A stretch of DNA of 64,000 nt from Promethearchaeota archaeon (GCA_048938025.1 JBHLMP010000008.1:1-64000); one strand, 5' to 3'. Counted from the first letter of the stretch, positions 37,501 through 64,000 are shown. Translations and numbers: made by a program. Notes: generated by a model from the sequence alone, not told the origin.

Positions 37501-37686
37501 GTATATTTTTATGGCTTCTTTATTAATTTTTTGTAAGACTTGAACGATGTCTAGATCACCTTTTTTTTTAATTATACTCTTCCATATCTATTTAAAGGAA
37601 AAAGTAGAAGGAAGGCAATCGTCTATCTTTTTCTTTATAAATATTCATTTGAATTTCATTGTAAAAATTAATAAAAATGCTAAGTT

Positions 37687-38853
37687 ATGATTGAAAAACA
37701 ACATATTTGTAGAAAATGTATTTTACCAGATGGATTTTTAGGTCTACAACTAAATTTGGATGGTGTATGCGACTTCTGTTCTGATCCTAATCATAAGGAT
37801 ATCAACTGGTCCCGCATTGTTATTGATAAAAAGAGAAGGGAAAATTATCTTTCTGATTGGAATACTGTTGTCGCTGAAATGAAAAATAATCACGAGAAAG
37901 TTAAGTATGATTGTGTGTTAGGGTATTCTGGTGGAAAAGATTCTACAGCACTTTTAGATTATTTAGTGAGTGAACTTGGTCTCACAACTTTGGCAGTAAC
38001 TACAGATACAGGCTTTATGACACCTATTGCGAAAGATAATATGAAAGAGACATTACAGCAAATCCATGTGGATCATATCTTAATTGAAGATGCCACAAGT
38101 ACTTTTACTAAGCTCTATAAGTTTCACTTCCTAAATCATTTTTCCACTGAGATATTTTTAGCACGAAATATCTGTGATTACTGTTCTGATTTAATTCACA
38201 GTATTGTGGTAAAAGAAGCGATGAAATATGAGGTCCCTTACGTACTATTTGGATATTCTCCTGATCAAATCTTCAGATATTTCTACGAAATGCCACAAGA
38301 AGAAGTTATTCATCATTGGAAGCCAGAAATTCTTAACAAAGATCCCTTTGATGAAAGAGATAGGAGATGGTATTTAACAGAACAAGAGATAAATAGCGAA
38401 AAAATACCGAGAGTCTTGCTCCCTTATCATGTAATTCCATATAGGGAAGAAGATATTATAAACCTTGTCGAATCTAAAAACTACATTAAAAAAGGACAGG
38501 CTGATCCATTGTTAACCAATTGTAATGTGGTGCATGCTGCAACCTTCTATGATTTTAATCGCTATGGTGGGATTCTTTATGCATACCAATATGCCGAATT
38601 AGTACGACAAGAACCAGAATCCAGAAAAAAGTGGCTACGAACCTTAAAAATCGTAGCTCCTTTAATTTTGGAAAATAAATTCAAAGAAAATGAGGTAACT
38701 CAATTCTTAGAGAAAATTGATGTTTCTCAAGAAGAATTGTTAGAACAGATTCATGCCCAATTAGAACAGGATCCGAACAGAGAACAAATTGAATTAAACA
38801 GGGACATGTTTCGAAAGAAAAGAAAAAAAACAATTAAACAAGCTATTTCTTAA
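37687..38853 (+). CDS. PP-loop ATP pyrophosphatase (N-acetyl-sugar amidotransferase/WbuX-like)
   Basis: CRKCILP...GVCDFC, YDCVLGYSGGKDST, CDYC, TNC. Confidence 0.8.
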   Translation: MIEKQHICRKCILPDGFLGLQLNLDGVCDFCSDPNHKDINWSRIVIDKKRRENYLSDWNTVVAEMKNNHEKVKYDCVLGYSGGKDSTALLDYLVSELGLTTLAVTTDTGFMTPIAKDNMKETLQQIHVDHILIEDATSTFTKLYKFHFLNHFSTEIFLARNICDYCSDLIHSIVVKEAMKYEVPYVLFGYSPDQIFRYFYEMPQEEVIHHWKPEILNKDPFDERDRRWYLTEQEINSEKIPRVLLPYHVIPYREEDIINLVESKNYIKKGQADPLLTNCNVVHAATFYDFNRYGGILYAYQYAELVRQEPESRKKWLRTLKIVAPLILENKFKENEVTQFLEKIDVSQEELLEQIHAQLEQDPNREQIELNRDMFRKKRKKTIKQAIS

Positions 38854-38940
38854 CTTTTTTTTCCTATTTTTTCTTTTACAATTTTACATTTTAATTATAT
38901 TATTAGTTCTATTTAAAAAGTTAAAAATATATAAAAATGC

Positions 38941-39753
38941 ATGGAACTATCAAAAAAAGGACGTTACAAATTATCACTTTTCATATGTCTCGTTTTAACC
39001 ATTACTGGGATTATTATTTTATATTACCTTAATTTTCCACTAATAATCCAAGCTTTTCAAGATTATGAAGGAGCATTGCAAGTCGTTTTGATTATATCCA
39101 TCAGAATGATAATCCTTTCCATAACTGCTTATTATTTATTTCATAAATGGTTTAAACAAGAAGCACAATATTTATCGGATATTCCATTCTTATTAGCTCT
39201 ATTTTTTCTTATCCTTACCTTTGGAAAGGCAATTGATTTACTTTGGGATCTTTCATTCTATACATTCAATGACTCTGTTGTTTTATTGTTTCTAAAATTC
39301 CGTTTTTTCATAATTATTTTCGAAGTAGCACCGCTAATTTATCTCGGTCTCGAAATTATATTTTTTAGGTTAGAGGATCGTTTTCAAAAATTAAAAGATA
39401 AACAATATATGAATAAACTAAGAATTACCTTAATATTAATTATTGTTAGTGTTGAGTCATTTGTAGTAATTATCGCTCCAAATAATACGACTATGGGTAT
39501 GCTCCTACCTAGTATTGTCATCCCTTCATTAGTAGGAATTGTATATATTTTTTACTTAGCCTATAGATTAAACCGTCTTACAGTAGTAAAACCTGGTATT
39601 TTAACCCTTGGATTTCTTTTATACTTGTTTTCTAGCATTTTTCGACCGCTCATGCAAAATATTTTAGGGGAAGAAGCAAGTTATATCATAATAACGGAAT
39701 TAGTTGACATATTTATTTTTGTAATAATTTTCTTTGGGTTATATAAGAAGTAA
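38941..39753 (+). CDS. multi-pass membrane protein (~8 TM)
   Basis: Regular hydrophobic helices, no catalytic motif recognised. Confidence 0.75.
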   Translation: MELSKKGRYKLSLFICLVLTITGIIILYYLNFPLIIQAFQDYEGALQVVLIISIRMIILSITAYYLFHKWFKQEAQYLSDIPFLLALFFLILTFGKAIDLLWDLSFYTFNDSVVLLFLKFRFFIIIFEVAPLIYLGLEIIFFRLEDRFQKLKDKQYMNKLRITLILIIVSVESFVVIIAPNNTTMGMLLPSIVIPSLVGIVYIFYLAYRLNRLTVVKPGILTLGFLLYLFSSIFRPLMQNILGEEASYIIITELVDIFIFVIIFFGLYKK

Positions 39754-39773
39754 AACCTTCTTTTTTCCTTTTT

Positions 39774-61927: not shown

Positions 61928-62683
61928 ATGTTAGAAGAATTAGTTGTGTTTGTCATCATTCTTTTTATTTCGCTCTTTTTTAATCATCTTGTATCAAAGG
62001 GTAGAAGTATTAGTCCATTTTATGGAATTCTTGTAAGATTAATGTATATAGGGGTTTTGATTCATGAGGTAAGTCATTATTTAATTAGCCTTCTAGTTGG
62101 TATCAAACCTCGTAAAATAGAAATCAAATTCAGGGATAGACAGACTAGAATGATTAATCCCCATGGTTATGTAGAAGTTAAACCCCGAAATTTTTTACAG
62201 GCTTTTTTACTTACATTCGCCCCTCTCTATATCTCAACATGGTTGGCTGTCCTTTTTTTCAACATTACAGCATATTCCAATTATTGGTTTGTCATTCGTA
62301 TTATCGCATGTTTATTCTTGATTTCTACTATAATTGGTGCTGCTCCTTCGAGTGCTGATTTATCTATTTTTTATCATTCAATACGATATGATGCATTATA
62401 CACTCTGTATCAAATTTTTCTCATTGCACTATCGATATTTATTCTTTGGACAATTATCTATTATTTTGAGATTGTATTTTTCCTTGATGTATTTTATTAT
62501 TTCAGCATTGCTGCGATTTATTGGGAGTTAAAGCTTGGATTTATGGGAGTAAGTAAGGCAGCATTTATTATACGATCGATAAGTTATCAAAGACCTCATA
62601 AATTGAAGGTTAGAAGTTTTGCTCGTCGCAGATACAAACCTCAAAAACCACATAAAATAGGAATTGAAGAGGCTCCATGGTGA
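61928..62683 (+). CDS. M50-like membrane zinc metalloprotease
   Basis: HEVSH (HExxH) in a hydrophobic context, GYV, FAP, PSSAD third ligand; multiple TM. Confidence 0.8.
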   Translation: MLEELVVFVIILFISLFFNHLVSKGRSISPFYGILVRLMYIGVLIHEVSHYLISLLVGIKPRKIEIKFRDRQTRMINPHGYVEVKPRNFLQAFLLTFAPLYISTWLAVLFFNITAYSNYWFVIRIIACLFLISTIIGAAPSSADLSIFYHSIRYDALYTLYQIFLIALSIFILWTIIYYFEIVFFLDVFYYFSIAAIYWELKLGFMGVSKAAFIIRSISYQRPHKLKVRSFARRRYKPQKPHKIGIEEAPW

Positions 62684-63047
62684 TAAAGAAATGAATATGA
62701 AGAGTATATGCTGCGTGGTGTTGATTGTCGTTTTTCTCATGTATTATCAAACTAACCCCGTATTTACGATTATAATTGTTGTCGTCGCTTTAGGAATTTA
62801 TATATTTTATAAGTCTAAGACTTCTGGTTCTGGTTCGGGGATATCAAGGTTTCTCAGTGGGAGGACTTACCAGCAGGAGAACCGTAATATGGATGATTTA
62901 ATTACATTGGTAATGCTTCAACAGTTATTAGATTCTTCTCCTGAAGAAAGAATGCTAGGCCATTTAGATCAAAACCTTAAAAAGACACAAGATGAGAGAC
63001 TTGAAAAGATGAAAAATGAGGTTCTTGAACTATTAGAAGAGGATTAA
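62664..63047 (+). CDS. small membrane protein with coiled-coil tail
   Basis: Two N-terminal TM and a Gly/Ser linker; true start may be ATG 62691 or 62697. Confidence 0.7.
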   Translation: MKRLHGDKEMNMKSICCVVLIVVFLMYYQTNPVFTIIIVVVALGIYIFYKSKTSGSGSGISRFLSGRTYQQENRNMDDLITLVMLQQLLDSSPEERMLGHLDQNLKKTQDERLEKMKNEVLELLEED

Positions 63048-63066
63048 ATTTTTAGAAGGGGATTGA

Positions 63067-63777
63067 ATGCAGATACATTCTGAATTTCTCGTTTTAATGC
63101 ATAAATTAATGGTAAGACACAAGATCCTAAGTCTTTCTGGAGAGTCTGGTACAGGAAAAACCACTTTTGCTTTACAAATGGTCGGAAATTTTTTGACTCA
63201 CACTTATCCTTTTGAAGAGTGCTGTATTTGGGTTCAAGCAAGTGAAATATTCCCTATTAGAAGGTTTTCACGAGTGTTTGATAATTCATTAGATAAGTAT
63301 AATTATCTTCAAAAAAATATCCTCATCACGCCTTTTAATACTACTTTAAATAACTATAAAAATCAATCTGAGTTCTTAACTAATTTTATCAATGAACTTA
63401 CGATTTTACCACCGAATTTGCGATATATTGTGGTTGATAATATCTCCCATCATTTGCGATTTGAGATTTCTAAATATAAGGATATTAAGTTAATTACCTC
63501 ACTTATAGATGATTTTTACGAATTTCAGCTCATGCCATTAATAATGTTCTGCCAAAGAGAAGGGATCTGTTTATTATTAATCCATGAGGTTTCATATGAT
63601 CCCAATTCAGGACAAAATCGAACCTTTCTTTACAAGTTATATGATAGAGTAAATACCATAAAAATAGAGTTATCCAATAGGTGTAATAATCGAAATAAGA
63701 GCATGAAAATATTATTCAAGGATTATTCATGGATGTTTGATTATGCTTTACAACATAATGGTCTAGTTACGTTATAA
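63067..63777 (+). CDS. RecA/RadA-family ATPase (RadB/Rad51-paralog-like, no N-terminal HhH)
   Basis: SLSGESGTGKTTFALQ, IWVQASEIFPIRRF, YIVVDNISHHLR. Confidence 0.8.
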   Translation: MQIHSEFLVLMHKLMVRHKILSLSGESGTGKTTFALQMVGNFLTHTYPFEECCIWVQASEIFPIRRFSRVFDNSLDKYNYLQKNILITPFNTTLNNYKNQSEFLTNFINELTILPPNLRYIVVDNISHHLRFEISKYKDIKLITSLIDDFYEFQLMPLIMFCQREGICLLLIHEVSYDPNSGQNRTFLYKLYDRVNTIKIELSNRCNNRNKSMKILFKDYSWMFDYALQHNGLVTL

Positions 63778-64000
63778 TCCTATACGCTTTGATTCTATCC
63801 TATAGAATATATTACCCTTAACCTGTGGTTACTCCCACATATCCGATCCATGCTAATGCTTGATTATTTTCTTTTTGATTTTATTACTATTTTTTAATCC
63901 TTTTTTTTGGTTTAAATATCTCTATATTATTTTCTTTTAAATATTCTTAATTTATAGGATTAATAGAGAAATTGAGGAAGCAAATATAAAAATAGTAAAT

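Follow-up and report, generated by a model that had tools for sequence, protein, structure and literature searches.

Confinement of a pyrimidine-tract promoter motif to an inserted island

A T-rich 15-bp motif (TTTTTTCTTTAAATA in its exact form) is restricted to a 39.4-kb island inserted into the genome of a Lokiarchaeial (Asgard) archaeon, and the regulon coincides with this island rather than with the genome. From its position and sequence, we somewhat favour the reading that nearly all transcription units of the island, those of RadA, FEN1/XPG and two SF2 helicase operons included, have this motif as their core promoter. With a similarly modest preference, the sequences suggest that the pyrimidine element found at the BRE position of these promoters is read by a TFB paralog private to the island and acting in a cascade.

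The window analysed comprised 64,000 nucleotides of the contig, in which the initial annotation had placed three exact copies of the 15-mer at 50271-50285(-), 60234-60248(-) and 61892-61906(+) together with near matches. The same coordinates were recovered, and the strings at all nine listed sites were reproduced as given. The earlier observation was confirmed and proved larger than first described, and its interpretation was partly supported; a genome-wide regulon of an alternative TFB did not hold, the motif being confined to the island. In the 3.52-Mb genome the exact 15-mer occurred nine times, and eight of these copies were intergenic and oriented toward a gene start. Seven of the nine were on the studied contig within 21.1 kb (50,271-71,395; 1e-11 by a scan-statistic approximation), and those beyond the window were found by the genome search at contig 64499(+), 67922(-), 68395(+) and 71381(+). 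When one mismatch was allowed, six matches were obtained in the window against 0.57 expected, and none of 100 dinucleotide-preserving shuffles of the window reached six.

A degenerate form of the motif (a T-rich hexamer, one base and a TATA-like octamer) was then compared between upstream regions genome-wide, as had been proposed at the outset, and the enrichment was clear: promoter-like matches were present in 15/25 island upstream regions versus 29/2,456 elsewhere (Fisher 1e-21). Intergenic matches fell in the island in 19 of 101 cases, although the island makes up 0.85% of intergenic DNA (binomial 4e-20). A PWM trained on relatives' sequences only placed 16 of its 43 genome-wide matches of at least 15 bits inside the island.

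The island spans contig 35,563-74,946 (39,384 bp), its left part (35563..64000) being inside the window. It is clear from blastn against the empty site of the closest relative that the junctions are precise to within 3 nt; positions 1-6761 of that site corresponded to contig 28832-35562 (93.7%) and positions 6759-16000 to contig 74947-84194 (94.4%), and this relative carries its own copy on another contig. The distance between the RtcB and radical-SAM flanks was 2.9-7.2 kb in 13/18 same-genus genomes versus 42.4 kb here. RadA, FEN1/XPG, an RPA-like protein, two SF2 helicases and many proteins without assigned function are encoded by the island, and the RPA-like gene has no motif copy of its own. 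As a mobile element, it shows presence/absence polymorphism with a precise empty site, but neither integrase, att sites nor virus hallmarks: when 38 island proteins were scanned, no Pfam integrase, transposase or recombinase family exceeded its cut-off, the two ends shared no direct or inverted repeat of at least 11 nt, no tRNA target was present at the island (the contig's sole tRNA is at 19371), and PHROGs matches were obtained for 0/10 island proteins, with no capsid.

Architecture and individual copies of the motif

The archaeal BRE is purine-rich and stands immediately upstream of TATA, an A/T-rich octamer that faces the gene and precedes the transcription start by about 25 nt. In the island motif, TTTTTT and a seventh base (C or, less commonly, A or G) form a 7-bp pyrimidine element that directly abuts the octamer TTTAWAWA with a 0-nt gap and occupies the BRE position, in line with the T/C tract first described in place of a purine-rich BRE. 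Over the 19 motif sites (contig beyond 36 kb), positions -7 to -2 were 74-89% T and position -1 was 53% C, against 35-42% T and 40-48% A in 643 words taken from elsewhere in the genome; the island sites are not purine-rich at the BRE. The gap between motif end and start codon was either 21-27 nt, which is leaderless spacing, or 40-59 nt. Five copies oriented at a gene had a gap of 21-27 nt to ATG, compatible with leaderless transcripts, and gaps of 45-59 nt came with an SD-like GGTGA.

The exact copy at 50271..50285(-) is 27 nt upstream of 48177-50243 (HHH_5), which heads a five-gene operon extending to 41875. That at 60234..60248(-) is 48 nt upstream of 57852-60185, the first of four genes in an operon whose products include an SF2 helicase and a DUF1922 protein, and that at 61892..61906(+) is 21 nt (leaderless spacing) upstream of 61928-62683, which heads a three-gene operon ending in a KaiC/RadB-like ATPase gene. 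The gaps of 28, 49 and 22 bp given earlier for these copies are the same distances with the first codon base included in the count, and the identical 17-mer reported for the first two is explained by a shared preceding TG.

Toward the left end, TTTTTCCTTTAAATA at 37589..37603(-) (PWM 20.6 bits) is the predicted promoter for gene 36358-37500, whose true start is probably an ATC further up, some 40 nt after the motif; back-to-back with it, CTTTTTCTTTATAAA at 37627..37641(+) is 45 nt upstream of 37687-38853. A second back-to-back pair, found in at least six relatives, comprises TTTTTTATTTAAATA at 41783..41797(-), 56 nt upstream of 39774-41726 and with A at motif position 7 in 6/6 orthologous promoters, and TTTTTCCTTTATATA at 41817..41831(+), an orphan running antisense into the 3' end of an NYN-RNase gene. 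The island copies point at gene starts; no ORF follows this orphan. The variant TTTTTTTCTTTTATAAAG at 50509..50526(+) is upstream of the Hel308-like helicase gene (50895-53423) and of a small, conserved Zn-binding ORF that had not been called, and a conserved coding sequence preceded that helicase gene in 8/9 relatives. Another variant, TTTTTTCTTTTTATA at 53434..53448(+) (PWM 12.3 bits), is 49 nt upstream of 53498-53767, and ATTTTTCTTTAAAAA at 53767..53781(+) is 23 nt upstream of a 71-aa ORF at 53805-54020. The orientation into adjacent genes noted initially was borne out. The site at 63930-63943 was weak: TTTTTGGTTTAAATA and TTTTCTTTTAAATA at 63904..63943(+) are two weak, putative copies, and a strong one for the next gene is at contig 64048(+), 21 nt upstream of the gene start. 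Outside the island, AAAAAGGTTTATT, the purine-rich example first given as preceding archease, occurred once, at 32615-32627(+), upstream of ORF 32659-33096 adjoining RtcB.

A divergent TFB with an altered recognition helix

The gene at 60323..61552(-) encodes a 409-aa protein in which a Zn ribbon and two cyclin folds are joined by an additional beta domain at the C terminus, and this protein is a true but very divergent member of the TFB/TFIIB family, as first suspected. Pfam scores were below the cut-offs for both Zn_Ribbon_TF (E 0.0068, 16.4 bits; cut-off 29 bits) and TFIIB (PF00382; E 0.13, 12.8 bits; cut-off 23.6), and a genome scan with PF00382 matched nine other genes and missed this one. 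A profile of the TFB-like family matched human TFIIB (E 7.5e-5), and hhalign against five of the genome's TFBs gave a probability of 98.3% (E 1.2e-14, 241 columns). The AF2 model had a core pLDDT of ~85-94, with helices spanning 101-314 and beta strands at 32-41 (Zn ribbon), and the ribbon cysteines C24, C27, C41 and C44 were invariant in 45 family sequences. In Foldseek, the P. woesei TFB core (1d3u_B) was matched with TMt 0.80 and rmsd 3.3 over 208 columns and 1ais_B with TMt 0.76; Brf1 and TFIIB were also among the matches.

Two arginines of the recognition helix have a DNA-reading role in canonical TFB. In the second repeat the canonical helix is GVTEVT-[LIV]-R-x-R, and its R-x-R was invariant in the five aligned host TFBs, likewise in all nine canonical TFBs of the host genome, which also has two TBPs. 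The aligned helix of the TFB-like family is GI[RK]MST[IV]-Q/H-x-Q-V, without R-x-R; the first of the two positions was Q in 61, H in 18 and a stop in one of 80 sequences, and the second was Q in 80/80. The protein at 60323-61552 has Q-x-Q and is the only TFB of the genome with a changed reading helix. A new specificity is proposed because R-x-R is replaced by Q/H-x-Q, and from these sequences we infer that the TFB-like protein binds the motif.

The TFB-like gene itself has a different promoter at 61608..61624(-), in which a purine-rich stretch is followed by TTTAAAA. In an alignment of 12 loci, a palindrome at 61644-61662 and a leader with SD at 61562-61571 were conserved, the conserved blocks being GAG.AGA..TCTT.TCATC, TTAAAA and ...ATAGTGATCAAA, and the T-rich motif was present in 0/12 of these orthologous upstream regions. 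As the factor's own gene is under this purine-rich promoter, a two-step cascade resembling those of phage or alternative sigma factors is suggested.

Conservation and linkage in relatives

The motif was retained in 66/103 orthologous upstream regions whose flanks were unalignable, conservation in orthologous promoters being a check proposed at the outset; for RadA it was retained in 8/8. Position 7 was conserved gene by gene, for instance as G in 6/9 for gene 67272. When the TFB-like gene was used as query, 80 loci were obtained from other Promethearchaeota MAGs, which contained 351 motifs in 1.29 Mb versus 34 for the reversed pattern. In relatives, the 40 kb surrounding the gene contained 10-19 motifs; gene and motif co-occur across them. 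This linkage may, against our proposal, simply be the common descent of one island.

Alternative explanations

The motif could instead be a strong island promoter read by ordinary host machinery, one of the nine canonical TFBs with TBP, which we regard as possible but unlikely. The T-tract would then be structural, bending the DNA, excluding histones or behaving as an UP-like element, and the TFB-like protein would be otherwise employed, as a co-activator like Sulfolobus TFB3 or a decoy. The nine TFBs and two TBPs could indeed serve the island promoters, and 29 promoter-like degenerate copies exist outside the island; the genes that follow these are unrelated, among them those for a nitroreductase, a histidine kinase and TatD. 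Some TFB-like loci are without or poor in nearby motifs (0 in L068, 1 each in L050 and L096, per ~21 kb), and the top prefix was TTTTTTC with both the Q and the H helix, thus no covariation between helix and motif was seen. These observations, together with the 10/19 island copies that follow a co-oriented gene, also stand against the proposed role of the TFB-like protein. However, the prefix TTTTC preceded TATA-like words in 10/32 cases in the island and elsewhere at chance (15 of 3,337 versus 12.1 expected), and host upstream regions are biased to sense-strand A-rich words. A structural T-tract needs neither a fixed 0-nt spacing nor a gene-specific conserved seventh base, and of the genome's TFBs the reading helix is changed only in that of the island.

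It is improbable that another DNA-binding protein of the island binds TTTTTTC beside TATA, activating or repressing the island, with the TFB-like protein as a passenger. Several small Zn-ribbon proteins are candidates (54160-54405, DUF1922 at 54511-55035 and the uncalled ORF upstream of the helicase gene), and about half of the island proteins have no family. Linkage as consistent as that of the TFB-like gene was seen for no such regulator: the TFB-like gene is present at 80/80 loci because it was the query, DUF1922 at 41/80. In the available text of PMC4581349, the second cyclin/HTH domain of TFB reads the upstream BRE via the major groove, and the pyrimidine element coincides exactly with the 7 bp contacted by this HTH, which counts against another binding protein.

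Slightly less probable again is that the T-tract acts mainly as an oligo-T terminator or insulator, blocking read-through from upstream in a tightly packed cluster. Termination of archaeal transcription at oligo-T tracts is indicated in the accessible part of PMC8716108, and the 10/19 copies after a co-oriented gene are at 0-270 nt from it where measured against called genes. But the other 9/19, including four back-to-back pairs, are in divergent intergenic regions with nothing to terminate; besides, there is never a gap between the tract and the TATA-like octamer, the last base of the tract is always a single non-T, and the element is kept before orthologues whatever the neighbour.

A chance product of an AT-rich genome is very nearly inconceivable for the island copies: although intergenic DNA is ~83% A+T, 88/170 outside copies are genic and mostly antisense to Lys-rich coding sequence, and in a genome without the factor 0/6 exact copies examined had an ATG ORF of at least 40 aa within 150 nt, chance was ruled out by the shuffle, binomial and Fisher tests, the cross-species conservation and the fixed spacing to start codons.

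Relation to known systems

In haloarchaea, expanded families of TFB and TBP paralogs partition promoters into regulons; such multiple paralogs were reportedly treated by Turkarslan and colleagues in 2011. The nine canonical TFBs of the island's host genome recall this expansion; the haloarchaeal paralogs are not known to depart from the canonical reading helix, and their promoter preferences are subtle. The top Foldseek match of the TFB-like protein (8iue_V, E 3e-6) was Brf1 as part of a Pol III pre-initiation complex. It shares with Brf a C-terminal extension after two cyclin folds, but identity is 11-14% and the extension is a small beta domain without shown likeness to the C-terminal region of Brf1.

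Sulfolobus TFB3, as described in the portion of PMC6101594 at hand, is a TFB paralog that switches on a DNA-damage-linked gene set, is present at those promoters and works through its Zn ribbon and a coiled coil with other transcription factors. A dedicated gene set is likewise proposed for the island factor, which, unlike TFB3 in that account, retains the two cyclin folds as well as an HTH whose reading residues are changed; its proposed targets have a distinct BRE-position element in common and are clustered in one mobile island. According to the available part of bioRxiv 10.64898/2026.09.06.749720, TFB2 of S. acidocaldarius is a full-length TFIIB paralog with a cell-cycle regulon and an autoregulated cascade, at whose promoters only the spacing differs, since they have near-identical TATA boxes and similar BREs. 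An own regulon and a cascade are also proposed for the island, where, in contrast to that description, the BRE-position sequence, a pyrimidine tract, differs in kind and the genes of the regulon lie physically together. TFB homologs of Asgard viruses and MGEs (10H_0, 7H_42-like, WyrdV1, JinchiV1) and of some rudiviruses have been proposed to recruit host transcription machinery to element genes (bioRxiv 10.1101/2021.07.29.453957; PMC13700489). They resemble the present case as TFB genes on accessory or mobile Asgard elements, and the available descriptions in these two sources, on which the comparison is based, mention no cognate promoter element. Unlike such carriers, the island had no capsid, integrase or PHROG matches, and the TFB-like family had no relative among IMG/VR contigs.

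Phage and alternative sigma factors are initiation factors encoded by an element that, with a changed DNA-reading helix, bring the host polymerase to private promoters and are themselves made from a host-type promoter. The scheme proposed for the island would work alike, with TFB, TBP and archaeal RNA polymerase in place of sigma and the bacterial enzyme. The gene of the TFB-like factor would be transcribed first, from its purine-rich promoter with the conserved palindrome and leader; the factor, together with host TBP and RNA polymerase, would then read the pyrimidine element, with transcription predicted to start ~22 nt after the octamer, and this reading would switch the island on as one unit.

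Distribution of the motif in the genome

The 15-mer TTTTTTCTTTAAATA is made up of a T-rich hexamer, one further base and the TATA-like octamer TTTAWAWA. A search of the window recovered the exact motif at 50271-50285(-), 60234-60248(-) and 61892-61906(+), the three positions reported in the initial annotation, and its near matches were likewise all found as written, together with the 17-mer common to the first two exact copies. The gaps from the exact motif to the start codon were measured as 27, 48 and 21 nt. The assembly comprises 3.52 Mb with ~30% G+C, the window covering positions 1-64,000 of a contig (C68) 88.5 kb long, and relatives of the contig's proteins were Promethearchaeota/Lokiarchaeia MAGs by name. 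Genes were called with our own crude ORF and codon-usage calls (3,107 genes, 85.5% of the genome), which place start codons only approximately and miss some small genes.

Nine exact copies were present genome-wide; seven were located at contig positions 50,271-71,395, and eight were intergenic and oriented to a start. When the motif was relaxed to at least five T among the first six bases, then C, A or G, then TTTAWAWA, 189 copies were obtained, 19 in an insertion of about 39 kb (hereafter the island) and 170 elsewhere. All 19 island copies were intergenic and 15 lay within 120 nt of the start that they face, and of the copies outside, 88 were genic, 29 promoter-like and 53 in other intergenic DNA. 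The island makes up 0.85% of intergenic DNA, and the enrichment of the degenerate motif there gave a binomial value of 4e-20. Since 15 of 25 upstream regions in the island carried the motif against 29 of 2,456 elsewhere (Fisher 1e-21), it is commoner upstream of these genes than genome-wide; the regulon originally proposed would be local to the island. Similarly, a TTTTC prefix preceded TATA-like words at promoter positions in 10 of 32 cases in the island versus 15 of 3,337 in the rest of the genome, where it was at chance level (12.1 expected).

Upstream regions outside the island were biased to sense-strand A-rich words (AAAAAA, for example, 1,210 forward vs 809 reverse), and a search there for prefixes enriched ahead of TATA-like words gave no crisp consensus for a housekeeping BRE. 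ARAGORN found only 14 tRNAs, whose upstream regions, compared in search of the canonical promoter, could not be brought into register, and position-specific composition relative to ATG revealed an SD signal and no sharp TATA peak. Among out-of-island targets, Pfam revealed no shared theme in 10 genes with promoter-like copies, which include a TatD DNase gene and a paralog of the island's prenyltransferase-like gene. The prenyltransferase-fold gene of the island has a 61%-identical paralog outside it (C51:47328-50375), with T-rich motif variants in the divergent upstream region (C51:50433-50500).

Insertion, distribution and gene content of the island

In the closest relative, the contig with the empty site aligned to 28,832-35,562 and then straight to 74,947-84,194, at 94% identity. 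Because this contig joins 35,562 directly to 74,947, the 39,384 bases at 35,563-74,946 are extra here. The same relative keeps its own island copy elsewhere, on a contig that begins inside the island, and its island proteins were 60-97% identical (tblastn), most of them above 70%. Of 18 same-genus genomes, 13 had the flanking RtcB and radical-SAM genes on a single contig, separated by 2.9-7.2 kb, and four had them on separate contigs; in the remaining one no second gene was recovered. Between 36,358 and 73,869, gene order was kept in at least eight same-genus regions, and the neighbours (within 10 kb) of the TFB-like gene at 60323-61552(-) recurred in 21-30 of 38 full-length loci of other MAGs.

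The island encodes RadA, FEN1/XPG, an RPA-like OB-fold protein, a Hel308-like helicase, an SF2 helicase with a DUF1922 protein, an HHH_5 protein, an NYN RNase, a prenyltransferase-fold protein, a KaiC/RadB-like ATPase and an Arf-like GTPase; about half of its genes have no protein family. A 1,266-aa protein has HerA/DUF87-like features (ESM Atlas 0.90-0.91), taken as a lead only, and ESM Atlas gave nothing usable for a 650-aa protein. The island RadA (at least 77% identity) was present in 10 of 18 genus relatives, and the RadA found across the order is of a different type, ~41-43% identical to it. For this order-wide type (C72:70361-71278 and orthologues), the aligned stretch contains a single in-frame stop in many genomes. 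Both ends of the insertion carry genes absent from other island copies, namely a CoiA-like nuclease at C68 74015-74815(-) (L001:10015-10815, where L001 counts from contig position 64,000), found in one of 80 loci, and a 95-aa ORF at window 35597-35884(-).

No integrase was found by Pfam among the 38 island proteins scanned, no att sites or terminal repeats of at least 11 nt at the island ends and no tRNA next to it; none of 10 island proteins matched PHROGs, and IMG/VR contained no relative, so that a viral reading was rejected. A defence reading was rejected as well, PADLOC giving only generic helicase-domain matches (HamB, Cas3, BrxH) with no system called; the PP-loop-like protein (37687-38853) gave weak DndC/BrxP matches. 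The island has thus moved as one unit, by a mobility mechanism not evident from its genes.

Promoter context and conservation of the motif

Copies in the island face gene starts, except for an orphan at 41817-41831(+), which is directed in antisense orientation into the NYN-RNase gene, at its 3′ end. A short class of motif-to-start gaps (21-27 nt, five cases) has the spacing expected of leaderless mRNAs, and a long class (45-59 nt) is accompanied by a GGTGA-like SD; the remaining cases have doubtful start calls. Four back-to-back divergent motif pairs are present in the island. The pair formed by the orphan and its partner is kept in at least six relatives, and the orphan could give rise to an antisense or non-coding transcript.

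Conservation in orthologous promoters, proposed initially as a check, was determined in relatives with proteins 32-92% identical (tblastn), 27 rows whose tblastn match started after residue 25 having been left out beforehand. The motif was kept at the same distance in 66 of 103 orthologous upstream regions despite diverged flanks, including all eight orthologues of the RadA promoter, and its seventh base was conserved gene by gene. Four genes accounted for 30 of the 37 misses: the TFB-like gene (12), the Hel308-like gene (nine), which follows a conserved small ORF, FEN1 (six, all with a TTTTTTTCTTTTTATA-like variant) and the RPA-like gene (three), which is probably co-transcribed with its neighbour.

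Several small ORFs and start codons were observed alongside. In the region C68 68395-68541(+) (L001:4395-4541), an exact motif copy stands ahead of a micro-ORF alone. The product of this ORF has 12 aa in the present genome and 19 aa in relatives, its C-terminus I-K-G-W-stop is conserved, and the ORF lies directly before the FEN1 promoter. The small ORF just 5′ of the Hel308-like gene (window 50530-50894(+)) is conserved and Zn-binding (CPFC...HCPH, ending ...WTNPY) and was present in eight of nine relatives; here it has no in-frame ATG, GTG or TTG start, and translation would begin either at an ATC 6 nt after the SD GTGATCC or by frameshift entry from an ATG in an A-rich run. For the gene at 36358-37500, the true start seems to lie upstream of the called one (window 37500-37560(-)), at an ATC after GGTGAT, and a relative has ATG at this codon (MVQVLEK vs IVQVLQK here), a second hint of ATC as start codon.

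The TFB-like factor

The product of 60323-61552 (409 aa) falls below Pfam cut-offs and was missed by a PF00382 scan of the genome. A 45-sequence profile of its family matched human TFIIB (E 7.5e-5) and P. woesei TFB (E 0.03). Its AlphaFold model contained a Zn ribbon, two helical repeats (pLDDT ~85-94) and a C-terminal beta domain, and Foldseek retrieved Brf1, TFIIB and TFB chains (1d3u_B, TMt 0.80). With hhalign, the factor aligned to five TFBs of its own genome over a stretch that begins at the Zn ribbon and reaches the C-terminal HTH (probability 98.3%, E 1.2e-14). This alignment paired the canonical GVTEVT-l-R-x-R-yKE with GI[RK]MST[IV]-Q-x-Q-VK in the factor.

Both arginines, which we take from TFB/TFIIB-DNA crystal structures to be base-contacting residues, were invariant in the five aligned host TFBs, and R-x-R was found in all nine host TFBs. 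Across 80 loci of the factor family, the first arginine position was Q in 61, H in 18 and a stop in one, and the second was Q in every locus. With 557 clusters at E <=1e-3 among 1.84 billion representatives, this is a small family. A complex prediction of the host TBP (residues 40-225) with the TFB-like core (95-320) scored 0.00 and gave no call either way. According to PMC4581349, the upstream BRE is read in the major groove by the second cyclin/HTH domain of TFB. The basal-factor repertoire of this 3.5-Mb Lokiarchaeial genome is large, with nine canonical TFB paralogs (contigs C55, C14, C84, C69, C7, C51, C49, C50 and C74) and two TBP genes (C12 and C13).

Linkage of the factor and the motif

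The exact 15-mer occurred 135 times in 18 same-genus genomes versus 37 for the reversed pattern; for 12 genomes from other genera the figures were eight and seven. Searches at E <=1e-10 detected the TFB-like gene in 14 of the same-genus genomes and in none of the 12 others. Exact copies clustered on the contig bearing this gene, with four in each of four genomes (one contig each) and three in each of three further genomes, the clusters being mostly within 25 kb. Degenerate copies around the gene reached 10-19 per 40 kb in same-genus regions, and 80 homologue loci of other MAGs contained 351 motif copies in 1.29 Mb versus 34 for the control. Exceptions were the loci L068, L050 and L096, with 0-1 copies. 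In one genome without the TFB-like gene, none of six exact copies examined preceded an ATG ORF of at least 40 aa. In a second such genome four of seven did, and because one of these four precedes an island-gene homologue, that genome holds a partial island. Covariation between the helix variant (Q or H) and the motif prefix was not seen, all groups sharing the same top prefix.

The factor's own promoter lacked the island motif in all 12 loci. It contains a purine-rich stretch with TTTAAAA at 61608-61624(-), an upstream palindrome (GAG.AGA...TCT.CTC) at 61644-61662 and a strongly conserved leader with the 3′ end ATAGTGATCAAA. About 130 nt upstream of the gene (window 61553-61700(-)) are far more conserved than other intergenic DNA, both arms of the palindrome being changed in some species, and this region may serve as operator, as regulatory leader or as both. 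Such a purine-rich promoter without the motif, with a palindrome and a conserved leader, fits a two-step cascade in which the factor, made by the host machinery under control of some kind, would in turn open the island.

Alternative readings and significance

That the island-private TFB reads a pyrimidine BRE is, on these sequence data, moderately probable. Rather unlikely is that host TFBs serve the island promoters and the T-tract is structural, and it is improbable that another island DNA-binding protein recognizes the motif. A main role as terminator or insulator is slightly more improbable still: the initial annotation had cautioned that T-tracts also act as archaeal terminators and had placed copies in divergent intergenic regions, and this location was borne out for nine of the 19 island copies, which argues against termination as the general role. 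Chance is a negligible explanation, as the window held six copies with at most one mismatch against 0.57 expected from shuffles, none of which gave six.

Brf1, Brf2 and Rrn7 are TFIIB paralogs with private promoter classes. Among archaea, Sulfolobus TFB3 (PMC6101594) and TFB2 (bioRxiv 10.64898/2026.09.06.749720) have established TFB-paralog regulons; in the latter work the BREs of TFB2 targets look similar and spacing alone differs. Asgard viruses and MGEs carry TFB genes suggested to recruit host machinery (bioRxiv 10.1101/2021.07.29.453957; PMC13700489). In the literature accessible to us we found no description of a pyrimidine BRE, a Q-x-Q TFB family or this island, and no alternative TFB in it has a clearly distinct cis element of its own.

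In the present 39-kb island, which moved as a unit and has no recognisable mobility gene, the 15-bp promoter is near-invariant and is found next to its candidate reader, a factor altered at two specific residues. If the pyrimidine-BRE reading is true, it would mean sigma-like promoter switching through BRE specificity in Asgard archaea and a co-regulated set rich in DNA-repair/recombination-type genes (accessory RadA, FEN1, an RPA-like protein, Hel308-like and SF2 helicases and a possible HerA-like ATPase), many members being unknown proteins; it would also supply future genetic work on Asgard archaea with an orthogonal pair of promoter and factor. More tentatively, we suggest that Lokiarchaeia may possess a transposable ~38-kb module with many DNA-repair/recombination-type genes and its own orthogonal transcription system, a TFIIB-family factor with BRE-reading arginines changed to glutamines being matched to a pyrimidine BRE on essentially all module promoters. 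Such a module would be an archaeal counterpart of the phage sigma cascade and would exemplify, in a living lineage, how TFIIB paralogs can arise that have promoter classes of their own. As Asgards are the closest relatives of eukaryotes, the system, if true, would bear on the specialisation of eukaryotic TFIIB paralogs.
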